From Pristiophorus japonicus (taxonomy: Eukaryota), in assembly GCF_044704955.1 (NCBI RefSeq), contig NC_091994.1, positions 101,060,001-101,124,000 on the forward strand: a DNA stretch of 64,000 nucleotides, in the 5' to 3' direction. The notes under the pieces are model-generated. The model was not told the DNA's origin, searched no databases, and saw only the letters and a program-made list of their open reading frames with translations. The translations under genes and the position numbers were made by a program. The first letter of the stretch is position 1. Each line of letters begins with the position of its first letter. Shown piece by piece: positions 7,561-57,876 of the stretch.

Positions 7561-7757
7561 ATTTAACAAAACCTTGTAGCGCATTGGCTCAGATAGCTGC
7601 ACCATTACACACTGGTGATTCCTTAACATCAAAGGGTACAATGACACTTAACTTCAATCAAGTTAAACTTTAACTGTCACCAAGATGGTGCCCACCATTG
7701 ATGTATGACCTGCACACCCAGCAGTGTGTCAGCCTTGCAAATAACACCAACATTCTT

Positions 7758-8952
7758 TCAGGCAAAGCGATCATTGATGAGCTCCTGACGTAAGGTTCTT
7801 GCATGGGCCCTTTCATGTGGTCTACAGGGAGGTGGGGGCATGGCTTCAGCGTCAGCCTGATTGTCTGTGCCGATGTTAGCGTCCACCTCCTCGTCCTCCT
7901 CTTCCTCTCTCTGATGAGGTGGACTGTCAGATTCATCAGGCAATTTTTGACCCTCCTGATAGCTGAGTTGTGCAGCATGGAGCACACCACCACGAATTGA
8001 GCTACCTGCTCAGGGTGGTATTGGAGGTCACCTCCTGAGTTGTCCATGCATCTAAAGCGCTGTTTAAGCACACCAATAGTTTTCTCCACGATAATACGAG
8101 TGGCTCTGTGGCTCTCATTGTATCGCCTCTTGGCTTCAGTGAGGGTGTCACGCAGGGGGTTCATCAGCCAGGTGGCGAGGCCATATCCTTTGTCACCAAA
8201 CATCCAGCATTGACTTTGTGGCTGATTGTTAAACAAGTCAGATACAGTGCTCTCACGCAGGATGTGAGCATCATGGATGTTGCCCGGAAATTGAGCATTC
8301 ACTGCCAGTATAATTTGCTGGTGGTCGACAACGAGTTGGACATTCAGGGAATGGAATCCCTTGCGGTTTCTGAAAACCTCTGCATCCTGAAAAGGTGCCT
8401 GCATCGTGATGTGCGTACAGTCTATTGCTCCCTGCATCTTGGGTAAGTTTGCAATTCTGGAGATTCCTAGAGCCCTCTCACTCTGTGCCTCCCTGGTCAT
8501 AGGGAAGTTGATCAAGTCCCTCCTGCGTCCGTACAGGGCTTCAGTGACCTGTCTAATGCAGCAATGTGTGGCATGCTGAGACAGTCTGCAAATGTCGCCA
8601 GCTGTGGCCTGAAAAGAACCTGAGGCATAGAATGACAGTGCCATGGTGACTTTGTCCTCGACGGACAGTGCAGTACCGATGGTGCTGGCAGGCTGCAGAT
8701 CTCCCCGTATGAGCTGGCATACCTCAGTGATAACCTCTTTGTGGAAGCACAGTCTCTGAAACAGGTGGTGTCGGGCAAGTCGAGGTAAGACTGCTTCTCC
8801 CTGTACGTGCAGGGGGTGTAACGTCTGGTCCTCCTCATCAGTCTGGCACGTCTTACATTGGGCACATAATGCTGTGGAGCGTACCTTCGGTGATCTCGAG
8901 TCTGCAGCATGTAATTGGTCATCAAGAGAGGGTGACAAAGGACAGACCCCAT
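7758..8952 (-). pseudogene. Harbinger (HARBI1-like) DDE transposase, frameshifted
   Basis: Assembled from three frames: MGSVLCHPLL... (ATG 8952), core ...FYASGSFQ...GAIDCTH...NRKGFHSLNVQ...GNIHD...GDKGY...YNESH..TRIIVEKTIGVLKQRFRCM...MLHN, and an acidic tail ending RQELINDRFA* (7758). Two frameshifts, near 8760 and 7950. Confidence 0.9.
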
Positions 8953-9679
8953 TGCAATTGCTCTCTGTTTTCCACTGATTGGTCACAAACAATGAATATC
9001 CCGACAAAGAACACCTATTCAATTCCAATCAGTCACAGTATGGTCAAGATGTTTGTACAGATGTTCACATCAACTCCAATGGCCTCCAGAGTACATCCGA
9101 GCTCCCCCGAGGTTGAAGCACCGCAGCCTTTGAAAGGATGCAACATGCGATCCAGAACATGGCATCCATAACGCTGTGATTAGTTCCGGTTAGTTCCACT
9201 TTTTCTGGGCGTTTTTTTGGGCGAGCGATATTTAAGGCAATATGTGTACGAGGTGGTGAAAGTGACGCTGGATGATCTCATGGCCGCTAGTTTCGCTAAA
9301 TATGCTCTTTACGACAAAAAAAAAGTGGGCGGGCGGTATTATTGAATCTCGGTATTAAATCAGTGCAGAAACTAATGCTGGGTGATATTATGGGCGTTGA
9401 TTTCGCCCATTCTGATGATTCTGCCCCCAAAAAGTGGGCAGGCGGTATTTTTTCCCCACGTTAAGCACATGGGGAAAGAAACGCTCGCCGATAAGTTTCC
9501 GAAAAATGCCCGTCAGTTTCCATTTTGTGGCTAAATGGGCAATATATGGGCGTTATACGTCATTTCAGCGGTAAAATGGGCGTTGTGGGTGTTAAGCATG
9601 CAAAAAAATCGGAAAATCTAGCCCCACTGACTTTAGTTAATAAAATAACAGAAATGAAATGGCAGAAGTCGCGTCTTCT

Positions 9680-12105: not shown

Positions 12106-12310
12106 TGTCATGTATGTATGCTTGGGTTTACTAGCCACCAGGTGGCACCACTGTCGGAGGTCATTGGGCTGTGCGCATGTGTGTGCGGCCCAGGTATAAA
12201 AGCCTAGCCATCTTGTAATGTAATCACTTTGGGCCCTAATAAAGTAGAGCCAGGTTATACCTGTTTGGAGTTTACAGTATTCAGTCTATTGAGTTATTGC
12301 ATACACAACA
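12106..12310 (+). repeat. 5' LTR
   Basis: 205 bp, TATAAA and AATAAA inside, about 10 differences from the 3' LTR by eye. Confidence 0.95.
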
Positions 12311-12312
12311 TT

Positions 12313-12323
12313 TGGCGACGAGG
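12313..12323 (+). other. Primer-binding site, probably tRNA-Ser(GCT)
   Basis: TGGCGACGAGG, 2 nt after the LTR, complementary to the ...CCTCGTCG-CCA 3' end of vertebrate tRNA-Ser(GCT). Confidence 0.75.
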
Positions 12324-12347
12324 TAACAAGAACATTCACATGCAAAA

Positions 12348-15300
12348 ATGAGCACAATTGGAATTCTGGAGCGATTTGTGGAACGAGAAGATTGGGTAGA
12401 CTTTATAGACCGCTTGAACCAGTATTTCGTGGCCAACAAAATGAAGGAAGAAGCAGATTCAGTTTGGCGCGGGGCGATCCTCCTCACGGTTTGCGGTCCG
12501 AAAATCTATGGACTCATAAAGAATCTCCTCTCGCCCTTAAATCCAATGGACAAGGACTATGAAACATTGTGTGCTCTGGTAGGTGGCCATCTCAAACCAG
12601 ATGAAGGCATCATCATCTCAAGATATCGATTCCATACGCACGTTTGTTCTGAGGGCCAGGATGTTTTGGAATTCGTTGCCGACCTAAGATGTCTAGCTGG
12701 ACCGTGTAAGTTCGAAACTGCATTGGCAGATATGCTGGCGGGACTTCTTTGTAATTGGCATCAACCACAAGGTGATCCTGCATAAGCTACTGGCGGCAGA
12801 GACGCTGATTTGAGCAAGGCCATCCGGATTGCCCAATCATGCATGACGACAGACAAAAGCTTAAAGCAGATATCATTGAAAAATCGGAATTCGGCAAGTA
12901 CTGTAAACAAGATAGTATTGTCGTTTGGCAGAGCTGCATATGGCAGGGCTTACCCGAATGCGTACACGAAACCTGTAGCTGCTCAAAGTCCACCAATGGG
13001 AATGAATCCGATATCACCGTGGTGGCGTTGTGGGGGAAATCATCGGCATCATCAGTGTTGGTTTAAACAGTATATTTGTAAAGGCTGTCCGAGATTGGGG
13101 CATCTCCAGCGCATGAGTCCACAACTGAGCAAGCGTGCTGCGACACACCACGTGAAGGATGATGACCAGTCTAGCGCAGATCCGGATATGCAATCCGAGA
13201 TAGCAGTGAAGGAAGTGCATGGACTGTATTTGTTCCTAACAAAGAGCCAACCGATAATGATTAATGTAAATCTTAATGGTGTGCCAGTATCGATGGAATT
13301 GGACACGGGTGCGAATCAATCAATAATGAACCAGAGGACATTCGACAGGCTGTGGGATACTAAGGCTGTGAAGCCTAAGCTGAGTCCAGTCAATGCCAAG
13401 TAGCGCACATACACTAAAGAATTCATAACGGTGATTGGCAGTACAGTAATCAAGGTGTCGCATGATGGTGTGGTTCACGATTTACCATTATGGATTGTTC
13501 CAGGCTAAGGTCCAACGCTGTTCGGCAAGAACTGGTTAGAAAAAATCAAATGGAACTGGAACGAGCTGGATCTGACGTCGGCCTACATGACACAGGAGCT
13601 GGTCGACACGTCGCAGAAACTTACGTGCATAAACACTCATAAAGGACTGTTGATCTACAACAGGTGCCCTTTTGGAATTCGCTCGGCTACAGCCATATTT
13701 CAAAGGAACATGGAGAGTCTACTGAAGTCCGTCCCCAGGACCGTCGTGTTCCAAGATGACATGCTGGTCACAGGTCGTGACTCCAACGAACATGTGAACA
13801 ACCTGGAAGAGGTTCTACATCGTCTGGACAAAGTGGGACTCAGACTGAAATGCTCGAAGTGCGTCTTCATGGCACCGGAAGTCAAATTCCTGGGGAGGAA
13901 AATTGTTGCTGACCGTATCAGGCCTACAGACTCGAAAACAAAGGCTATCAAAAATGAACCCAAGCCTCAGAATGTGACGGAGCTGCGTTCGTTCCTTGAT
14001 CTGCTTAACTACTTCGGTAATTTTTTACCTAGATTGAGCACCTTATTAGAGCCACTGCACATGCTGCTAAGAAAAGGCGACAACTGGGTTTGGGGTGCAT
14101 CTCAAGATAGAGCTTTTGTGAAAGCTACTAATCTACTTTGCTCTAACAAGCTGCTGGTACATTATGATCCGTGCAAGTGTCTAGTATTGGTCTGTGATGC
14201 TTCGTCATATGGAGTTGGTTGCGTGCTCCAACAAGCTAATGAGTCGGGCAAATTACAACCTGTTGCATAAGCTTCAAAAGGTTTGTCAAAGGCGGAAAGA
14301 GCCAACAGCATGGTAGAGAAAGAAGCACTAGCCTGTGTGTATGGGGTTAAAAAGATGCATCAGCACCTGTTTGGTCTTCGGTTTGAACTAGAAACAGATC
14401 ACAAGCCACTCATTTCATTGTTTTTGGAAAACAAAGGTATCAATACCAATGCATCGTCCCGCATCCAGAGGTGGGCGCTGACATTATCTGCCTATGATTA
14501 TGTCATTCGCCATAGACCTGGCACTGAGAATTGTGCCGATGCATTGAGCCGTCTGCCGTTGCCCACACCGAAGGTGGAAATGCCACAACCGGCAGACCTA
14601 CTGTTAGTCATGGGTGCTTTTGAAAGTGAAGGAACCCCTGTCACGGCCTAACAAGTTAAGACCTGGATCAGCCAGGACCCAATATTATCGGTTGTGAAAC
14701 ATTGTATCCTTAGTGGTGATTGGTCTGCCGTACCCAAGCAAATGTGTGAGAGACCAAACCTTTTACATCCATCGCAAAGACGAATTAGCCATTCAATCAG
14801 ATTGTATACTGTGGGGTAATCGTGTTGTTATGCCCAAGAAAGGCAGAGAGAAATTTGTGCATGATCTACATAGCACGCATCCCGGTATTGTCACGATCAA
14901 AGCCATTGCCAGGTCTCATGTATTATGGCGTGGAATTGACTCTGAGCTGGAATCATGCGTGCATCAGTGTAACACTTGCATGCAGTTTAGTAAAGTACCA
15001 GCGGAATCGCCACTGAGTCTGTGGTCATGGCCATCTAAACCAAGGTCCAAGATCCACATCGACTTTGCAGGTCCCTTCCGAGGAAAGATGTTCTTAGTTG
15101 TGGTGGATGCTTATTCCAAGTGGATAGAGTGTACAATCATGTCATCCAGCACATCCACAGCTACGATTGAGAGCCTTCGTGTCATATTTGCTGCGCATGG
15201 TCTGCCTGACATCATTGTAAGTGACAACGGATCTTGCTTCACCAGTATGAAGTTTCAAGAGTTCATGAAACCCAATGATATCAAACATGTGAGGTCAGCA

Positions 15301-15987
15301 CCATTCAAACCCGCATCCAATGGACAAGCAAAGCGTGCGGTCCAAACCATCAAGCAGAGTATGAAACGTATAACTCAAAGTTCACTGCAAACTCGCTTGT
15401 CACGCATATTGCTTAATTACAGGACAAGATCCCATATGCTTACCGGCGTCTCCCCTGTTGAACTATTGATGAAGAGAAGTCTGAAGACCAGGCTCTCTCT
15501 TGTCCACGCTGACTTGAATAATCGTGTCGAATACAGACATCAAAATCAGCAGTGGTATCATGATCACACAACTGTGTCACGTGACATTTCTATCAATGAT
15601 CCTGTGTATGTACTGAATTATGGTCAAGGTCCCAAATGGATTGCCGGTACTATTACGGCCAAGGAGGATAACAGAGTGTTTATCGTTAAGCTCAAGAATG
15701 GGCAGACATGCAGGAAATGTGTCGATCAGATAAAGCTGTGGCACACGGATGAACTGAAACAGTCTGAGGAAGACACAATCAGTGACCACCAACCTACCCT
15801 CAGTCATCAGAGGACTCCGCTGTCATCAATGAATCTGGACTTTCAATCCCTGACGTGGTTATTGCCACTCCGATCAGATCGGCCCCAGCCCCCAGTCATA
15901 ACAGACTCAGAACACTCGCCTCGGACTTGCGTTGAACTGAAACATTCAACTCGGGAGCGGAAAGTCCCGGACCGTCTCAATTGGTAA
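12348..15987 (+). pseudogene. gag-pol polyprotein pseudogene (Gag, two Zn knuckles, protease, RT, RNase H, integrase)
   Basis: EDWVDFIDRLNQYF (Gag), degenerate double CCHC, MELDTGA (protease), RCPFG and FQDD (RT), CDASSYG/EKEALA/TDHKPL (RNase H), HHCC plus IHIDFAGP/SDNG (integrase). Several stops and frameshifts. Confidence 0.95.
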
Positions 15988-16020
15988 AAAGACCATTATT
16001 AATATCTTAAAGAGGGATAT

Positions 16021-16226
16021 TGTCATGTATGTATGCTTGGGTTTACTAGCCACCAGGTGGCACCACTGTCGGAGGTCATTGGGCTGTGCGCACGTGTGTG
16101 CGGCCCAGGTATAAAAAGTCAGCCATCTTGTAATGTAATCACTTTGGGCCCTAATGAAGTAGAGCCAGGTTTGTACCTGTTCAGAGTTTACAGTATTCAG
16201 TCTATTGAGTTATTGCATACACAACA
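16021..16226 (+). repeat. 3' LTR
   Basis: 206 bp, preceded by the purine tract AAAGAGGGA and followed by TSD GGTCA. Confidence 0.95.
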
Positions 16227-22724: not shown

Positions 22725-23853
22725 ACATAGAAACAAAAGAAAATAGGTGCAGGAGTAGGCCATTCGGTCCTTCAAGCCTGTACTACCATTCAATATGATC
22801 ATGGCTGATCATGCAACTTCAGTACCCCATTCCTGCTTTCTCTCCATACCCCTTGATCCCTTTAGCCATAAGGGCCACATCTAACTCCCTTTGGAATATA
22901 TCTAACGAAGAGGCCTCAACAACTTTCTGTGGTAGAGAATTCCACAGGTTCACAATTTTCTGAGTGAAGAAGTTTCTCCTCATCTCGGTCATAAATGGCT
23001 TACCCCTTATCCTTAGACTGTGACTCCTGGTTCTGGACTTCCCCAACATCGGGAACATTCTTCCTGCATCTAACCTGTCCAATCCTGTCAGAATTTTATA
23101 TGTTTCTATGAGATCCCCTCTTATTCTTCTAAATTCCAGAGAATATAAGCCTAGTCGATCCAGTCTTTCTTCATATGTCAGTCCTGCCATCCTGGGAATC
23201 AGCCTGGTGAACCTTCGCTTCACTTCCTCAATAGCAAGACTGTCCTTCCTCAGATTAAGAGACCAAAACTGTACACAATATTCAAGGTGTGGCCTCACCA
23301 AGGCCCTGTACAACTGCAGTAAGACCTCCCTGCTCCTATGCTCAATTCCTCTCGCTTTGAAGGTCAACATGCCATTTGCCTTCTTCACCGCCTGCTGTAC
23401 CTGCATGCCAACTTTCAATGACTGATGTACCAGGACACCCAGGTTTCATTGCACCTCCCCTTTTCCTAATCTGTCACCATTCAGATAATATTCTGCCTTC
23501 CTGTTTTTGCCACCAAAGTGGATAACCTCACATTTATCTAAATTATACTGCATCTGCCATGCATTTGCCCACTCACCGAACCTGTCCAAGTCACCCTGCA
23601 GCCTCTTAGCATCCTCCTCACAGCTCACACCGCCACCCAGCTTAGTGTCATCTGCAAACTTGGAGATATTACATTCAATTCCTTCGTCTAAATCATTAAT
23701 GTATATTGTAAATAGCTGGGGTCCCAGCACTGAACCTTGCAGTACCCCACTAGTCACTGTCTGCCATTCTGAAAAGGACCCATTTATTCCTACTCTGTTT
23801 CCTGTCTGCCAACCAGTTCTCTTTCCACATCGATACCTCACCCCAAATACCAT
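22725..23853 (-). mobile_element. CR1 LINE, 5'-truncated (RT C-half plus 3' UTR)
   Basis: QGSVLGP, KFADDTKL, RPHLEYCVQFW and FFTQKIVNLWNSLP, with a CTATGT-type tail. Confidence 0.95.
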
Positions 23854-24476: not shown

Positions 24477-27400
24477 ACAGTCCAACAGCGACAGGCCGGA
24501 ACGCCGCACCGCCATAGTTGCCCGGGAACTTAGACACTTTGACATTGACATCGCCGCCCTAGGCAAAATCCGGCGGGCAGAGGAAAGCCAGCTCAAGTAA
24601 CATGGTGGAGATTCTACCTTTTTCTGGAAAGGAAAACCAGAGGAAGAACACCGCCTTCATGGAGTTGGCTTCGCTGTCAAAAATGAACTGGTCGGCCGCC
24701 TCAAAGACTCCCCCTTCGGGATTAACGAATGCCTGATGACTCTTCGCCTGACCCTATCCCAGAACCAATGTGCCACAGTCATCAGTGCGTACGCCCCACA
24801 CTCGGTGCAACGGATGAGGCTAAAGAAGGTTTTTATTCCAACCTCGAGACATCCCTGCCCTGCGTCCCCAAGGACGACAAATTGATCCTTCTATGAGACT
24901 TTAACGCCAGGGTCGGCAAAGACACAGCCCTCTGGGGAGGTGTGATTGGCAGAGAGAGGGTAGGGAAATCCAACTCCAATGGCACCCTACTCCTGACAAA
25001 ATGTCTAGAACACAAACTCCTCATCACCAACACCCTGTTCCGCCAGAGGGACAAATACAAGGCATCGTGGCAACACTCTCGCTCCAAACACTGGCACCTG
25101 CTCGACTATGTCATTGTCCGAGCCAAGGATCGCAAGGATGTGCGATCACCCGTGCCATGACAGGAGCTGACGACTGCTGGACGGACCACCGCCTAATCCG
25201 ATCCATCATCGACATCAACATAGCCCCAAAGCAGAGTGGACAGCAAAAGCAATGCCACAAAAATATTAATGTCGGAGCACTTAAAGACCCAGCTAAGAGA
25301 GCCCTATACAGCCAGCGCCTCACAGCCAACCTGGCGTGCCTTGATGACCCTGAGATGCACAATGCCCACAGCGCTTGGGCTGCCCTCCAGGCCTCCACAA
25401 CCAGTGCCTGTGAAAAAACACTTGGATACTCAACTAGAAAACACCAGGACTGGTTTGATGAAAATGATCAGGAGATCCAAGAGCTAATAGATCATAAGCG
25501 CAGAGCATTTTTGAGCCTCAAGCAACAACCAAATTCGGGAGCTACAAAGCAACATTACAGACGGCTCAAGGCTGAGGTCCAACAAAAAACCCGGGACCTA
25601 AAGAGCAGGTGGTGGATGGAGAAAGCGCAGGTGATACAACAATTAGCCGACAGCCACGACACACGAGGATTCTTCACTGCAGTCAAGGCCACCTATGGTC
25701 TAAACTCCCAAGGCCCCACCCCACTCCTGGCAAAGAACAGGGAAAGACTCATCAAGGACACCAAGGCTGTCAGGGCCCGCTGGAAGGAGCACTTTGAAGA
25801 TCTCCTCAATCAAGACTCTGCCTTTGACTTGAGTGTTCTCAACTCCATCCCGCAGCATGCGACCCGCCACCACCTCAGTGAAACCCCAACACTGCACGAG
25901 GTAGGCAAAGCCATAAAACAGCTAAATAATAACAAGGCTACGGATGCGGATGGAATTCCTGCTGAGGCACTAAAATATGGTGGAGAGGCGCTGTTGGTGC
26001 GGATACATGACCTCATCTCTCTCATTTGGAGGAAGGAGAACATGGCGGGAGATCTCAGAGATGCAGTGAACGTGTCCATTTTTTTAAAAGGGGAACAAAT
26101 CCGACTGCAGCAACTACAGGGGAATCTCCCTGCTATCAACCACTGGGAAGGTTGTCGCTAGAGTCCTCTTCAACCGACTTCTCCCTGTGGCCAAGGAGCT
26201 CCTCCTGGAGTCACAGTGCGGATTTCGTTCCCTACGGGGAACAACGGACATGATCTTTGCAGCACGACAACTGCAGGAAAAATGCAGGGAGCAGCGCCAG
26301 CCCTTATACACGGCCTTCTTCGATCTTACAAAGGCCTTTGACACTGTCGACCGTGAGGGCTTATGGAGCATCCTCCTCCATTTTGGGTGCCCCCAAAAGT
26401 TTGTCAACATTCTTCGTCTGCTCCACGACGACATGCAGGCTGTGATCCTTACCGGCGAATCCGTTACAGACCCATTCCATGTCCGAACCGGGGTCAAACA
26501 GGGCTGCGTCATCGCTCCAACCCTTTTCTCAATCTCCCTCACTGCCATGCTCCACCTCACTGTCAACAAGCTCCCTGCTGGAGCGGAACTAAACTACAGA
26601 ACCAGTGGGAAGCAGTTTAACCTAAGCCGTCTCCAGACCAGGTCCAAGACCACCCAAACCTCTGTCGTTGAACTGCAGTACGCGGACGACGCCTGCGTCT
26701 GTGCACGTTCTGAGGCTGAACTCCAGGATACAGTTGATGTATTCACCGAGGTATATGAAAGCATGGGCCTTACTCTTAACATCTATAAGACAAAGGTCCT
26801 CCACCAGCCTGTCCTCGCTGCACAGCACTGCCCCCCAGTCATCAAGATCCACGGCGCGGCCCTCGACAACGTGGACCACTTCCCATACCTTAGGGGCCTC
26901 TTGTCAACAAAGGCGGACATTGATGCAGAGATTCAACATCGCCTCCAGTGCGCCAGTGCAGCCTTTGGCCGCCTGAGGAAAAGAGTGTTCGAAGACCAGG
27001 CCCTCAAACCTACCACAAGCTCATGGTCTACAGGGCTGTAGTAATACCCGCCCTCCTTTATGGATCAGAGGCATGGACAACTTACAGAAGACACATCAAG
27101 TCGCTGGAGATATATCACCAACGATGTCTCCACAAGATCCTGCAAATCCCCTGGGAGCACAGATGCACCAACATCAGTGTCCTCGCCCAGGCTGACGTCC
27201 CCAGCATTGAAGCACTGACCACATTTGATCAGCTTCGTTGGGCAGGCCACTTAGTCCGCATGCCAGACACGAGACTCCCGAAGCAACTGCTCTATGCGGA
27301 GCTTCTTCATGGCAAACGAGCCAAAGGTGGGCAGCGGAAACGTTACGAGGACACCCTCAAAGCCTCCCTGATGAAGTGTGACATCACCACTGACGTTTGG

Positions 27401-27671
27401 GAAACCCTGGCCGAAGACTGCCCTAGGTGGAGAAAATGCATCTGGAAGGGCGTTGAGCTCTTCGAATCTCAACGCTGCGAGCGTGAAGAGGTCAGGCGTA
27501 GGCAGCGGAAGGAGCGCGCGGCAAATCAGTGCCAGCCCCGCTTCCCCTGACGAATATCTGTCCCACCTGTGACCGGTTCTGTGGCTCTCGTGTTGGACTG
27601 TTCAGCCACCAAGGAACTCACTTTAGGAGTGGAAGCACGTCTTCCTCGATTCCGAGGGACTGCCTAAGATG
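24477..27671 (+). mobile_element. RTE-clade (BovB-like) LINE, near-complete ORF, frameshifted
   Basis: APE endonuclease (RPERRTAIVAREL, SKHWHLLDY, WTDHRL), RT (ESQCGFR, FFDLTKAFD, GVKQGCVIAP, YADD), C-terminal zinc-finger remnant, short 3' tail. 10-bp TSD ACTTACAGTG at 24467-76 and 27672-81. Confidence 0.95.
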
Positions 27672-28061
27672 ACTTACAGTGCTTTGGATAACTCTTCTGA
27701 TACATAGCTAGGTATCTACCCAGCTTTACCTCACTACCACTTCTGTTGACCCCTCCTTGGTCTCTAAATTGTAAGATATCCAGTTCTGGGTGAGCAGAAA
27801 TTTTCTCCAATTGAGTATTGGTGTAAAGTATCTGCTTCATGGGTACCTTGCTTAAGAATTCATAGTAACACATTGCTATTAAGAACTTGTTGGTTTATTA
27901 GCAAAGGTTTAACAATCACACTACACATTACCAGTTCATCCACCAGGCTCACAACCACATGCCTCATCATGGATCCCCTAAACCCAACTGGCTGGGGTTT
28001 TATTGAGTCTTGTGAACATCACGTGACTGGCTAAGCCACTCACAACTCAACAGCTCTACAA

Positions 28062-28732
28062 CTATTTTTGTAAGAACTTTAAATCAAGTACCCCTTTTGT
28101 GAGGGCACTCGAACCCACAAATGTCCAAATTAACATGGGAACTTTACCAAATTAAATTAAAATTCTGTTCCCGGAAGTGATGATGCACTCCAGTCTCTCC
28201 GGTGTCCATCTCTCGCGGAAGGCCGCAAGCGTACCGGTGGACACCGCGTGCTCCATCTCCAGGGACACCCTGGCTTGGATGTAACCGCAGAAGAGAGGCA
28301 GACAGTCAGGCTGAATGACCCCCTCGACCGCCTGCTGCCTGGACCGGTTGTTGGCCCCCTTGGCCGTGCACAGGAGCAGTCCTACAAGGAGGCCTTCCGA
28401 TCTGCCCAATCCCCTCCGCACAGGGTGCCCAAAGATCAGGAGTGTGGGACTGAAGTGCAACCAGAATTTGAGAAGCAGCTCCTTCAAATAATGGAGTAGG
28501 GGCTGCAACCTAGCACACTCAACATAAATGGAACACGGACTCCTCTAGACCGCAGAAATTACAGGCGGCCTGGGAGTCTGTGAACCGACTTAAAAACCTA
28601 TTGCACAGGACTGCTCCGTGCAACACCCTCCAGGCCAAGTCCCCAATAAATAAAGGGAGGACTCCCGCGTAGAAAGCACTCCATTGGGGACCCCCACCTT
28701 CTCCGGAGGGCAAGATGGTGCGCCATGGCGTG
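28062..28732 (-). mobile_element. Tx1-clade (L1 group) non-LTR retrotransposon 3' fragment, unit 1
   Basis: DTPWR...DLAWRVLHGAV...RFTDSQAACNFCGLEESVFH...KFWLHFSP resembles the Xenopus Tx1 ORF2 C-terminus (zf-RVT). Flanked by TCAACAGCTCTACAA at 28047-61 and 28733-47. Confidence 0.9.
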
Positions 28733-28747
28733 TCAACAGCTCTACAA

Positions 28748-29521
28748 CTATTTTGCAGGAAACAGAAAATCATGTGGCCCCTGATTAAAGGCAGGGGACA
28801 CACCAAACATTTTCAAACAAGTGCCCCCATTTTTTTTTGAGGGCACTGAAACCCAAATTATACAAGTGCCCCCTGGCTAAAAAGGGGGGGGGGGGCATTA
28901 AACCGGTAAATTAAACAAATTAAACTTTAAACATATAAAGCCAAATTAAAATTTGATTGCCGATGATGATGATGCATTCCAGTCCCTCCAGTGCCCACCT
29001 CTCGCGGAAGGCTGCAAGCATATCGGTGGACACCGCGTGCTCCATCTCCAGGGACACCCTGGTTCGAATGTAGCCGCGGAAGCGAGGCAGGCCATCGGGC
29101 TGAACGACCCCTCCGACTGCCCGCTGCCTGGACCGGTTGTTGGCCCCCTTGGCCGTGCCCAGGAGCAGTCCTACGAGGAGGCCTTCCGACATGCCCGATC
29201 CCCTCTGCACAGGGTAGCCAAAAATCAAGAGCGTGGGACTGGAGTGCAACCAGAATTTGAGGAGCAGCCCCTTCAAATAACGGAAGAGGGGCTGCAACCT
29301 GACACACTGAACATAAACGGAACACGGACTCCTCTAGACCGCAGAAATTACAGGCGGCCTGGGAGTCTGTGAACCGACTTAAAAACCTATTGCACAGGAC
29401 TGCTCCGTGCAACACCCTCCAGGCCAAGTCCCCAATAAATAAAGGGAGGACTCCCGCGTAGAAAGCACTCCATTGGGGACCCCCACCTCCTCCGGGTGGC
29501 AAGATGGTATGCCATGGCGTG
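28748..29521 (-). mobile_element. Tx1-clade 3' fragment, unit 2
   Basis: Same ORF2 C-terminus with a longer 3' UTR. Flanked by 15-bp repeats at 28733-47 and 29522-36. Confidence 0.9.
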
Positions 29522-30179
29522 TCAACAGCCCTACAAACCTGTGAACATACTCACAGGTGCAGACTCCACAGCTGGGAAGATCGAAGCCATTGTTTTCAGT
29601 CCCTGCCAGAAACTCTGTTCCCTAGTCATTGGTTCCATCCCGCTCCCCAACTTCTGTCTGAGGCTGAACCAGGCTGTTTGTAACTTTGGTGTCATATTTG
29701 ACCCTGAAATTAGCTTTCGATCACATATCCGCTGCATAACTAAGACCGCCTATATCCACCTCCATAACATCGCCTGTCTCTGCCCTTGCTTCAGCTCATC
29801 CGCTGCTGAAGCCCTCATCCATGCCTTTGTTACCTCTAGACTTGACTATTCCAACACGCTCCTGGCTGGCCTCCCACATTCTACCCTACGTAAACTAGAG
29901 GTGATCCAAAACTCGGCTGCTCGTGTCCTAACTCGCACCAAGCTCACCCATCACCCCTGTGCTCGCTGACCTACACTGGCTCCCGGTTAAGCAACGCCAC
30001 GATTTCAAAATTCTCTTCCTTGTTTTCAAATCCATCCATGGCCTCGCCCCTCCCTATCTCTGTAATCTCCTCCAGTCCGATAACCCCCGGAGATGTCAGC
30101 GCTCCTCTAATTCTGCCCTTTTGAGCATCCCTGATTATAATCGCTCAACCATTGGTGGCCGTGCCTTCTGTTGCCTAGA

Positions 30180-30467
30180 CCAGCTCACTCAGGTGGACAT
30201 AAAAAATCCCATGGCACTATTTCAAAGAAGAGCAGGGAGTTATCCCTGGTGTCCTGTCCAATACTTATCCCTCAATCAACATAACAAAAAACAGATTATC
30301 TGGTCATTATCACATTGCTGTTTGTGGGAGCTTGTTGTGCACAAATTGGCTGCCGCGTTTCCCACATTAGGACAGTGACTGCACTCAAAAATTACTTCAT
30401 TGGCTGTAAAGCGCTTTGATATGTCCGGTGGTCGTGAAGGTGCTACATAAATGCAAGTCTTCCTTCC
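30180..30467 (+). mobile_element. Deu-domain SINE 3' part inserted in L2
   Basis: CAGGTGGACATAAAAAATCCCATGGCACTATTTC...ATAAATGCAAGTCTT; L2 sequence resumes afterwards. Confidence 0.85.
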
Positions 30468-30764
30468 CTGAGCTCTGAAAGTCCCTGCCTAAACTGCTCC
30501 ACCTCTCTACATTTCTTTCCTCCTTCAAGACGCTCCTTAAAACCTATCTCTTTGACAAAGCTTTTGGTCACCTGCCCTAATTTCTCCTTATGCAACTTGG
30601 TGTCAAATTTTTTTAAATCTCATAATACTCCTGTGAGGTACCTTGGGACATTTCACTACGTTAAAGGTGCTATATAAATACAAGTTGTTGTTGTTGTAGG
30701 TCCCTCTGATTTACAACCTACTTTAGAATGTTGAAATAGGAAGAATAATTTTACGTAAAGGAAG

Positions 30765-51889: not shown

Positions 51890-52618
51890 TTGAATGTTCC
51901 AGAAATTGTGCTTTGGGGGAAGTAGGAACCTTTATTTGGATTTCACTCGCCAAATACAGGAGAGGCCTAACCCAACTAGTACAGGTAAGATCTAACCCCT
52001 CCAGTACAGGATAGGCCTAACCCACCCAGTACAGCTAACTAAACACAGGTCACAGGTCAAACCTGGAACTTTTCATGCTGGAATGGCTCAATAACATACT
52101 GGGCACTAACCAACTGAGCTCTCATGGGAGCCTTCAGTAGTGTTTATATAACTTCCCGCTGTTAATATACAGTAGGCCTAATCCTATGGAATCAAAGGGG
52201 GCATTTGACTCCTCTTTGTTAAGTGACAACTCCTTGTAGGTGAGAGAATGACTAGTTCTGAGGCATCTACACTTTAGGCTGTAATGGTGTTTGTTTAATA
52301 GGATTGATTGGATAAAGGGAACAACGTGCTTGGCATATAGCGTTTCCCTGTTACATGGGTCTAGTTTATTGTGAAAAAGCTCAATGTACTCCAGAGAAAG
52401 AGTTGATTTGAAGCGAGAATTGGGGTTGATCTGTTTGGGTTAGATCTGGGTTTAGATCTTACGTGTACTGGTTGGGTTAGGCCTCTCCTGTACTGGGTGG
52501 ATTAGGCCTATCCTGTACTGGGTGGGTTAGGCCTATCCTGTATTTGGCGAGAGAAATCCAAGTAAGGATTGCCAAAGATTTCCTACTCCCCCCAAAGCAC
52601 AATTTCTAGAACATTCAA
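51890..52618. mobile_element. Foldback-like element with about 150-bp inverted arms containing 25-bp tandem units
   Basis: TTGAATGTTCCAGAAATTGTGCTTTGGGGG... versus ...CCCCCAAAGCACAATTTCTAGAACATTCAA; unit AGTACAGGATAGGCCTAACCCACCC x3 per arm; no TSD seen. Confidence 0.75.
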
Positions 52619-53974: not shown

Positions 53975-54374
53975 GACATGACCCCTCAATCGTTTTGAGG
54001 TGTCCAGCGTAGCTTTCGAGGACCTTCTCCATTTTGCTCCCAGGAACCTCTGTCATTTGTCTTTGGCCTCTAGGTTCAGCCTTCAAGTCTGTGCGGTTCC
54101 TGGCTTGGCCTTCGGATCAAGTATGTTGGCACTCCCTGTAATGTATTTGCTTCATGGGTTCTTTGCTTAAGATTTCATAGCAACACATTGCTATTAAGAA
54201 CTAGTTGATTTATTAACAAAGGTTTAACAATCACACTACACATTACCAGTTCATCCACTTGGCTCACAACTGCATACCTCATCGTGGATGACCTAGACTC
54301 AATTGACTGGGGTTTTACTGAGTCTTGTGAACATCACGTGACTGGCTAAGCCACTCACAATGCAACAGCTACAA

Positions 54375-54733
54375 CTCTTTTGTTGAGAACAAATAACCAA
54401 TGAAATCAAGTGCCCCCTGATTAAAGTTGGGGGGGGGGAATACCACAAAAACTTTTCAAGTGCCTCTTTTTTTTTAGGGCACTAAAAACCAGCAAATTAA
54501 ACAAATTAAACTTTAGACAAACATCAAAGTAAAATTTGGTTGCCGGGGGTGATGATGCACTCCAGTCCCTCCGGTGCCCACCTCTCGCGGAAGGCCGCGA
54601 GCGTACCGGTGGACACCGCGTGCTCCATCTCCAGGGACACCCTGGCCCGGATGTAACCGTGGAAGAGAGGCCGGCAGTCAGGCTGAACGACCCCCTCGAC
54701 GGCCCGCTGCCTGGACCGGCTGATGGCCCCCTT
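54375..54733 (-). mobile_element. Tx1-clade 3' fragment, unit A
   Basis: KGAISRSRQRAVEGVVQPDC...AAFRERWAPEGLECIITPGNQILL*. Flanked by TGCAACAGCTACAA at 54361-74 and 54734-47. Confidence 0.9.
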
Positions 54734-54747
54734 TGCAACAGCTACAA

Positions 54748-55181
54748 CTCTTTTGTTGCAAAACAGAAACAAACATGAAATTAAGTGCCTCCTGATTAAA
54801 GGGAAGAGGGAAACACTCCAACCAGTTTTCAAGTGCCCTTTTTTATTTTGTTTTTTTTTGTGTTTTTTTGTGGGCATTAAAACCACAAATTATACAAGTG
54901 CCCCCTATAAAAGGGCAGGGGGACACTAAAACCCGGCAATTAAAACAAATTAAACTTTAAAACATATAAAATCAAATTAAAATTTGGTTGCCGGGGATAA
55001 TGATGTACTACAGTCCCTCCGGTGCCCACCTATCGCAGAAGGCCGCGAGCGTACCGGTGGACACCGCGGGCTCCATCTCTAAGGACACCCTGGCGCGGAT
55101 GTAACCGTGGAAGAGAGACAGGCAGTCGGGCTGAACGACCCCCTCGACGGCCCGCTGCCTGGACCGGCTGATGGCCTCCTT
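54748..55181 (-). mobile_element. Tx1-clade 3' fragment, unit B
   Basis: Same ORF2 end with a different 3' UTR. Flanked by repeats at 54734-47 and 55182-95. Confidence 0.9.
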
Positions 55182-55195
55182 TGCAACAGCTACAA

Positions 55196-55392
55196 CTCTT
55201 TTGGGGTAAACAAAATTAAACATTAAATCAAGTACCCCCTGATCTGGGGGTCACTCCAAACACTTTTCACATGCCCTTTTTTGTTGTTGTTTTTTTTGGT
55301 GATTTTTGTGGGGATTTTTTGTGATTTTTTTGGGGGTATTAAAATCATATAATTTACAAGTGTCCCCTATAAAAGGAGAGGGGGACACTAAA
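55196..55392 (-). mobile_element. Tx1-clade 3' UTR-only fragment, unit C
   Basis: Same CTCTTTTG terminus and CAAGT(G/A)CCCC modules. Flanked by repeats at 55182-95 and 55393-406. Confidence 0.8.
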
Positions 55393-55829
55393 TGCAACAG
55401 CTACAAACCTGTGAGCATATTCACAGGTGCATACATTATACTCCCCAGTTCTCACCTCGGGTTTCCTTCTTGTCAAGTTGGCAAGTCTCGAGTTCAAACA
55501 CCCCTATCCCCACCAAGTTGGTCAAATCCAACTGAGCAGTCCCAGCACCTCACTAATCCCAGTATCAAATCAGCTTTTCACTAACAGATTGCACCATTTT
55601 CTCAATGGCCGCCACCCAGTTTTGTATCTGTTCGACTCGCAGCAGTAGGCTCTGCCTTCAATTCGCTGATCTGAGCTGGGGCTGTGGTTGAGGTGCTTCA
55701 ATTGGCTTCAGCACTCCTAAGAAAAACAGTTAGAAATAAAAGGGCAAAGTTTGCCCTCACCAACAGTTATGGGAAAGGAAACCTTAATTAAAAAATTCAA
55801 GATCACAAAATGAAAGGAGTGTTTTCGAG

Positions 55830-56577: not shown

Positions 56578-57876
56578 TAATCATCATAGGCAGTCCCTCG
56601 AAATCGAGGAAGACTTGCTTCCACTCTGCAAGTGAGTTCTCAGATGACTGAACAGTCCAAAACGGGAATTACAGTCTCTGTCACAGGTGGGACAGACAGT
56701 GGTTGAAGGAAAGGGTGGGTGGGGAGTCTGGTTTGCCGCACGCTCCTTCCGCTGCCTGCGCTTGCTTTCTGCATGCTGTCGGCGACGAGACTCGAGGTGC
56801 TCAGCGCCCTCCCGGATGCTCTTCCTCCACTTAGGGTGGTCTTTGGCCAGGGACTCCCAGGTGTCGGTGGGGATGTTGCACTTTATCAAGGAGGCTTTGA
56901 GGGTGTCCTTGAAACGTTTCCTCTGTCCACCTGGGGCTCGCCTGCCGTTTAGGAAGTGTGCAACGGCCACCACACGTTAAAAAAAATTCACGCACAGGCA
57001 TCTTCCACCCTTCAACATGTAGTTCGGGATCTGGAATGTCAAGTCACTCATTGAAACACCTGTGAACTCATCCCTTTTTGGTGAGGAAGCGGGTCATCCT
57101 TGGGGAAGTCCAGAACCAGGGGTCACAGTCTGAGGATAAGGGGGAAGCCATTTAGGACCGAGATGCGGAGGAACTTCTTCACCCAGAGAGTGGTGAACCT
57201 GTGGAATTCTCTACCACAGAAAGTTGTTGAGGCCAATTCACTAAATATATTCAAAAAGGAGTTAGATGAGGTCCTTACTACTAGGGGGATCAAGGGGTAT
57301 GGCGAGAAAGCAGGAATGGGGTACTGAAGTTGAATGTTCAGCCATGAACTCATTGAATGGCGGTGCAGGCTAGAAGGGCCGAATGGCCTACTCCTGCACC
57401 TATTTTCTATGTTTCTATGTTTCTATATGAGGAAACACCTATGATGATGAGGAGGAGTTCTGCGTAGAGCGCTTGCTTTGGGAGTCTTGTGTTGGGCATG
57501 CAGAAGATGTGGCCCGCCCAATGGAGCTGATCGAGTGTGGTCAGTGCTTTGATGCTGGGAATGTTGGCCTGATCGAGAACACTGACGTTGGTGCGTCTAT
57601 CCTCCCAGTGGATTTGCAGGATCTTGCGGAGACATCGTTGATGGTATTTCTCCAGTGATTTGAGGTGTCTACTGTATATGGTCCACGTCTCTGAGCCATA
57701 TAGGGGGACGGGTATCACTACAGCCCTGTAGACCATAAGCTTGGTGCCAGATTTGAGGGCCTGATCTTCGAACACTCTGTTCCTCAGGCGACCGAAGGCT
57801 GCGCTGGCGCACTGGAGGCAGTGTTGGACCTCATCGTCAATGTCTGCCCTTGCTGATAATAGGCTCCCGAGGTATG
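56578..57876 (-). mobile_element. RTE LINE 3' fragment interrupted by two nested inserts
   Basis: YLGSLLS...LMVYRAVV...RLPKQALYAELL | GRRAPGGQRKRFKDTLK...CPTCDRDCNSRFGLFSHLRTH, with an (ATG)n tail. Confidence 0.92.
57100..57427 (+). mobile_element. CR1 3' fragment nested in an RTE-tailed insert
   Basis: GKSRTRGHSL...FFTQRVVNLWNSLP, with a (TTTCTATG)n tail. Confidence 0.92.

Follow-up and report, generated by a model that had tools for sequence, protein, structure and literature searches.

Tandem Tx1-clade LINE fragments at one site in two Gypsy-type LTR copies: probable independent insertion between loci and local copying within them

Our analysis of a 64-kb window, meaning the whole 64,000-nucleotide stretch of DNA under study, revealed that all five of its Tx1 pieces sit at one site in the two host LTR copies present (one piece, B3, being placed by DNA match). 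Judged from the sequence, Tx1 insertion into the two LTR lineages, designated A and B, was very probably independent. The five units have only three 5' junctions among them, which argues that local copying had a part in building the arrays. As the best overall explanation we propose a targeted insertion in each LTR lineage followed by re-cutting of the duplicated target and copying of the neighboring unit, an account that, taken whole, we regard as having about an even chance of being right.

At locus A, the initial annotation had described a word repeated three times around two Tx1 fragments of about 670 and 775 bp, and this description was confirmed: the word TCAACAGCYCTACAA occurs at 28047-28061, 28733-28747, and 29522-29536, and the units, both on the minus strand, measure 671 and 774 bp. 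These are the sole matches in the 64-kb window at up to two mismatches. Shuffled windows gave a mean of 0.38 such matches and reached three in 1 of 100, and the exact-match expectation for a 15-bp word is 2.7e-4. The 3' part of host LTR copy A (27822..28061, minus strand), which carries E-box, TATA-like, and polyA-like motifs, ends in the downstream word (copy 1, 28047..28061, minus strand). There follow unit A1 (28062..28732, minus strand), an ORF2 C-terminal fragment with a short 3' UTR; word copy 2 (28733..28747, minus strand) between A1 and A2, whose first two nucleotides double as the unit's Asp codon, that is, as microhomology; unit A2 (28748..29521, minus strand); the upstream word copy 3 (29522..29536, minus strand), with one T>C change; and the 5' part of the LTR (29537..29562, minus strand), in which a hairpin with a 9-bp stem (29537-29558) abuts the word. 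A1 reads from DTPW to a stop at 28152-28154, with a frameshift near 28529, and has one of the three hairpin modules in its 3' UTR; A2 has the 5' junction and frameshift of A1 and three 3' UTR modules. Truncation had been placed at DTPWR codons, which holds for DTPW in both units and for DTPWR in A1 only, A2 reading DTPWH.

At locus B, the host LTR copy (54137..55440, minus strand; 272 bp without inserts) is flanked by a 5-bp TSD, CTCCC, at 54132-54136 and 55441-55445. Four 14-bp words, at 54361, 54734, 55182, and 55393, are shorter by the 2 nt and start with TG. They delimit three units on the minus strand: B1 (54375..54733, 359 bp), with its 5' junction at AKGA codons; B2 (54748..55181, 434 bp), with B1's 5' junction and an in-frame stop; and B3 (55196..55392, 197 bp), which is 3' UTR alone and has its own 5' junction. 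Both host copies being occupied, the 64-kb window contains no host LTR copy without Tx1.

The units are assigned to the Tx1 clade of LINEs by ORF2 homology that includes the C-terminal CCHC region. Two peptides of A2 match Xenopus Tx1 ORF2 (P0090, name from source), one at 54% identity across 68 aa (E 2e-22), the other at 37% across 117 aa (E 3e-16). Identity to P0003, a Tx1-type protein without a name, is ~60%; P0003 is itself 41% identical to P0090 across 99% of its length. Pfam returned no family for two short A2 peptides. The endonuclease and RT core are absent from the 64-kb window, tblastn with P0003 matching residues 426-622 only. Hallmarks of target-primed reverse transcription are present, namely a 3' junction common to all five units, three distinct 5' junctions, and a duplication of 13-16 bp. 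The 3' UTR lacks a poly(A) tail and consists of up to three AAGTGCCCC...GGGCACT stem-loop modules (28748-28945, 54748-54975, 55196-55392), with one, two, or three per unit. The third module is missing in the downstream units A1 and B1 and kept in A2, B2, and B3; a long T tract and the third module are common to B2 and B3. Shuffled sequences fold as well as the 3' UTR hairpins do (z 0.08 and -1.0). Rfam gave no match at gathering score in the whole window, and thus no sign of a snRNA, tRNA, or rRNA target such as those of Keno or Dewa. Three proteins considered as tandem Tx1 arrays on account of long multi-stretch hits (P0011, P0061, and P0085) turned out to be unrelated repeat proteins; they are still within the 86-protein BLASTP set (E<=1e-3, 85 alignments) used for the homolog columns below.

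What is the host element? The left parts of the two copies (54137-54370 in B) are 89.7% identical over 234 bp, with 23 of 225 positions differing. Copy A has, on the minus strand, CACGTG at 28025 and AATAAA at 28004 and 27899. The ends of copy B form an inverted repeat at 9 of 10 bases, with the terminal CA present as TA, and its TSD is within the 4-6 bp range of Gypsy-type LTRs, which have TG...CA ends. A complete Gypsy-type element lies at 12106-16226 on the plus strand, with 205-bp LTRs that are 95% identical, a 5-bp TSD (GGTCA), and Pfam hits to protease, RT, RNase H, and integrase in separate broken frames. Its LTR start matches at 9 of 10 bases, and in its 3' LTR CACGTG stands ~13 nt before a TATA box, the same arrangement as on the minus strand of the host copies. 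We infer from these features that the host is a Gypsy-type solo LTR oriented like the Tx1 units, and that the insertion site probably lies in U3, ~35-48 bp from the LTR 5' end and directly after the small hairpin, itself of borderline stability (z -2.5 for A and -1.5 for B). No internal gag-pol was Pfam-detectable beside either copy in a scan of 21 window frames, which took in 21 of 28 ORFs with a length of 150 aa or more, and the host might conceivably be a short non-autonomous DNA transposon rather than an LTR. Copy A lacks its terminal ~9 bp and the flanking TSD where it is abutted by a fragment at 29563-30690 that we take to be L2-like, and nothing corresponding to the missing end was found near the locus. 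A SINE-like repeat is nested at ~30180-30440 inside this fragment. In the 3' LTR of the Gypsy element, 16166-16181 matches the locus-B target stretch at 15 of 16 bases and carries no Tx1 insertion; this near-match is statistically weak (E 0.076 window-wide, 7e-4 locally).

The words carry the variant of their own LTR in all seven cases, as the initial annotation had pointed out on the basis of the 2-nt indel. All four B words start with TG, which is not supplied by element sequence at the junctions. The 5' junctions differ between A and B, and each is flush with the word. Microhomology amounts to 2-3 nt at A, given that RP|DT stands at this point in 4 of the 20 listed homologs, to 2 nt at B3, and to 0-3 nt at B1/B2. 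A single mutation cannot change both terminal words once an insertion is in place, and so the LTR lineage with the derived word would have been empty when it mutated, after the split of the lineages. Because each word matches the LTR that holds it and the 5' junctions of A are not those of B, insertion in the two lineages is best read as independent, and to this extent the earlier proposal of independent insertions at two LTR copies is supported. The argument rests on mechanism and not on the sorting of variants, which as a bare statistic is weak (1 in 35 for seven words, 1 in 10 after dropping duplicated words). The word variants may mark LTR subfamilies rather than single copies.

Within the loci, the units are not independent. 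The 5' ends of A1 and A2 are in exact register (28732), as are those of B1 and B2 (28361), and distinct 5' truncation is found in only one of three adjacent pairs, B2/B3, while all three internal tandem junctions have the full word. Different truncation points, as claimed earlier, thus distinguish the loci; inside a locus, A1 and A2 are truncated at the same base, and so are B1 and B2. A1 and A2 have in common the 5' junction, the frameshift, a 170-bp tract, and a 19-nt tail spacer, and counting the units as separate insertions is therefore not supported. The tract (28530..28699, identical to 29319-29488 with no mismatch) contains none of the 57 differences found over 580 coding-region positions (0 of 100000 permutations), and in its flanks the two units differ by 12-16%, including 5 of 34 positions beside the junction. 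Such a tract is probably a later gene conversion inside an older A1/A2 pair. It could be an assembly artefact, which would leave the junctions unexplained. The common frameshift borders this converted tract and so does not count as a separate line of evidence.

A coding tree from the 177 bp common to four units, outside the tract, groups (A1,A2)|(B1,B2) with 99% bootstrap. The AU test rejects the alternative trees (p=0.03), whereas the KH test does not (p=0.08), and clean two-state sites number four for the grouping by locus (two at CpG) against one. Site 28362 was left out of the informative sites because the word's first base falls there in B. At single columns, Asn is common to A1 and A2 where Ile is found in the two B units and in 58 of 73 homolog alignments, and a Ser common to B1 and B2 occurs in only 2 of 74. 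A Thr at 28367 in A1 and A2, found in none of 75 homolog alignments, was kept out of the locus-specific residues, because the B units do not reach this position and because the family has further rare residues that are common to both loci. The tails sort by locus as well, A with CTATTTT and spacers of 19 and 19 nt, B with CTCTTTT and spacers of 28, 30, and 29 nt. Non-CpG divergence is 28/293 between A1 and A2 and 21/219 between LTRs A and B, 9.6% in both cases, which would date the A pair to an early phase in which the family was probably still active. The A1-A2 differences are near neutral: of 52, 22 are synonymous, where 16.9+/-3.3 would be expected (p=0.085). Selection on A1 versus A2, considered on a raw pN/pS of 0.45, was dropped because a test that preserved the mutation spectrum gave no significance (the same p=0.085); one of ten comparisons in this mutation-spectrum test fell under 0.05.

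The 3' ends tell a less uniform story. Between A1 and A2, 27 of 122 aligned 3' UTR positions differ, with six gaps, versus 44 of 345 in the body (Fisher p=0.018), and the A2 UTR is closer to that of B2 (33/217) than to that of A1. The last ~115-165 bp of A1 diverge while its body groups with A2. B1 and B2 have a similar UTR excess (23/176 versus 12/178 in the body). A UTR tree, built as a test of chimerism, resolved in none of five alignments, with one site for the grouping by locus and two to three for A1B1|A2B2. Private changes number 1 in B1 versus 9 in B2 (p=0.02) and 8 versus 13 in the A units (p=0.38), or, pooled, 9 in downstream and 22 in upstream units (p=0.03), contrary to the prediction of a clean duplication. 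UTR divergence and unequal private changes hint at chimeric units; they do not prove them, because homopolymers abound in the UTR and make its alignment difficult, and because the excess at B1-B2 is similar.

We propose the following model. The endonuclease of a Tx1-clade LINE would recognize a site in the U3 of a Gypsy-type LTR, where insertion would proceed by target-primed reverse transcription. Separate insertions in LTR lineages A and B would each have duplicated 13-16 bp of the local target and been truncated at short microhomology. The duplication would regenerate the target and leave the site cuttable; the regenerated word would be cut again, and the break closed by copying the neighboring unit through its 5' junction and word, with 3'-end priming of a short new cDNA as a possible earlier step. 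The units would then decay approximately neutrally, with later gene conversion homogenizing 170 bp at locus A. Target specificity of the endonuclease is highly likely, and we are similarly confident that the 5' halves were copied locally, whereas re-cutting of the regenerated word as the trigger could equally well be right or wrong. A sequence-specific endonuclease and target-primed reverse transcription are established for Tx1L and R1 (PMC1950540 and PMC2718515, cited here and below for their available portions), and in vitro the Tx1L endonuclease nicks its target almost exclusively (PMC1950540). The most upstream unit at A has its neighbor's junction, which implies that it was copied through the 5' end and the word, something that crossovers in the body cannot achieve, and junction sharing at both loci suggests a repeatable route. 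Re-cutting with homology-directed copying would take one step, recur at both loci, and fit the early date; for this combination we see the scales as roughly level. Nascent L1 cDNA is able to recombine with resident copies in cultured cells. The available part of PMC10760644 contains nothing on cDNA invasion of resident copies. A more speculative extension, which we hold to be rather unlikely, is that the arrays extend themselves: a re-cut TSD would prime cDNA from a different family member, and synthesis would switch to the neighbor's body, junction, and word. If this were true, chimeric units would combine new 3' ends with inherited 5' junctions, shared truncation points need not mean hitchhiking, and tandem counts would overstate insertions.

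Alternatively, each unit may have inserted sequentially into the regenerated word, in the manner of R1, with unequal exchange and gene conversion homogenizing the array afterwards. This route, already published for R1 and SINEU-3 tandems (PMC2718515; PMC4494074 and PMC5932611, likewise cited for their available portions), deserves serious weight, although we consider it unlikely for these arrays. It would accommodate UTRs more divergent than bodies, the unequal private changes, and the conversion evident at A, and if a B3+B1 dimer had expanded to a trimer, B2 would have its 5' end from B1 and its 3' end from B3, with which B2 does share the long T tract and third module. The B2-B3 UTR mismatch (31/173) is, however, not below that of B1-B2. 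Body crossovers leave the 5' junction of the most upstream unit intact, and at A this junction equals the neighbor's, so that the route requires either that a third unit was lost precisely or that conversion was one-sided, with 15 bp as its anchor; that an identical truncation at 2-3 nt of microhomology came about twice by chance, in both pairs, is implausible. The duplication might instead have arisen while the Gypsy element was active, from one Tx1 hit per LTR lineage in U3 and template switching in the element's own reverse transcription that duplicated unit and word, the present copies being solo-LTR relics of loaded elements, a form of hitchhiking inside a lineage. LTR replication copies U3, in which the insertion site would lie, and the equality of A1-A2 and LTR-LTR divergence is what an LTR arriving with two identical units would produce. 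We nevertheless judge this route improbable, as it leaves the UTR divergence, B3's separate junction, and the unequal private changes unexplained and still requires two independent hits on one site.

The initial annotation had named, as the outcome that would count against independence, congruent unit and LTR trees tracing to a single composite ancestor with later deletions. The trees are congruent, with the bootstrap given above, and a single composite ancestor is not indicated; the congruence points to local copying within each locus instead. In such a history, an LTR already carrying tandem Tx1 units would have been amplified, with later deletions and concerted evolution making the loci look private. 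The locus-wise coding tree, the lack of the third UTR module in A1 and B1, as orthologous positions might show, and the occurrence of conversion at A agree with it. Yet the 2-nt indel and two substitutions would have to spread to both terminal words across different flanks, and two deletions would have to end exactly at the word edge. The upstream A word moreover keeps its private change and 5 of 34 junction-adjacent bases differ, which argues against recent conversion across the junction, and we regard a composite ancestor as very unlikely. We give just as little credence to the idea that the truncated units are themselves mobile, a SINE-like derivative whose read-through RNA of word and unit is reverse transcribed in trans, its 5' word annealing to the cut target. 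That process would reproduce junction and frameshift exactly, and for R2 and SINEU the possibility of co-transcription with the target has been discussed (PMC4494074), but it predicts one junction at unlinked loci, and here the junctions sort by locus.

The initial annotation had argued for true target specificity as opposed to co-amplification. The independence of the loci speaks for this view, but two loci cannot establish specificity across a family, and co-amplification inside each LTR lineage is possible. In the available text of PMC4494074, a Tx1 family counts as target-specific when >20% of copies are flanked by one sequence type; here five of five pieces are at one site, although in a 64-kb window with two loci and three junctions only. 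The hitchhiking-versus-targeting question was tested for SINEU-3 with truncated copies, 86 of 88 of which were associated, by the same logic as that of the initial annotation (PMC4494074).

Tx1 targeting of LTR elements and TSD-separated tandems are already published. In the available portions of PMC4494074, Tx1-8_Crp and Tx1-4_AMi, of the crocodilian, Keno-related Tx1 group, target LTR elements; the units described here resemble them in LTR targeting, a likeness by target type, as the window units are without an RT core. Tx1L of Xenopus laevis, found in Tx1D, has a homologous ORF2 C-terminus (37-54%) and likewise inserts sequence-specifically into a transposon (PMC1950540, PMC4494074); its target, unlike the LTR here, is a non-autonomous piggyBac DNA transposon, and the present units are 3' fragments only. 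Drosophila ancestral-type R1 forms head-to-tail units with a 14-bp TSD between them by re-insertion into the regenerated site, with 1-5 nt of 5' microhomology in its tandems (PMC2718515, PMC5932611). Identical R1 junctions were read as amplification of one event (PMC2718515), and distinct 5' truncations as evidence for double insertion (PMC5932611). The arrays in the window are head-to-tail and TSD-separated like those of R1, but most neighbors are without distinct 5' truncations; R1 also belongs to the R1 clade and targets 28S rDNA, in contrast to a Tx1-clade family with an LTR target. Finally, SINEU-3 in Mariner-N4_AMi forms Tx1-driven tandem insertions with a 16-bp TSD between them inside another transposon (PMC4494074); it is a SINE with a DNA-transposon target and genome-wide counts, whereas the family described here is known from two loci. 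The literature covered, largely without subscription journals and Repbase, describes neither the Tx1 family of this window, which may already be named, nor 5' junctions shared by neighbors in Tx1 arrays. The neighbor-shared junctions add a minor mechanistic twist to a known kind of feature.

If confirmed genome-wide, the site would represent an extra natural target, 14-15 bp in an LTR U3 beside a small hairpin, for sequence-specific APE endonucleases, which matter for retrotransposon target switching and for site-specific gene insertion. A note of caution also follows for the counting of insertions: LINE fragments in tandem with a TSD between them are usually taken to represent one insertion each, and in this case five units have three junctions.

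Other elements are found in the same window. An open 452-aa frame at 7670-9028 on the minus strand has a DDE_Tnp_4 domain (E 4e-37) and is presumably a Harbinger-like transposase. A long LINE with RT, which we take to be RTE-like, occupies 24905-27672 on the plus strand and ends ~150 bp before LTR A; related pieces lie inverted at 56581-57876, where another repeat (57100-57408, matching 22738-23046) interrupts the LINE copy at 56.6-57.9 kb. Two short 25-bp tandem arrays at 51927-52570, inverted and 420 bp apart, are possibly the ends of a DNA transposon.
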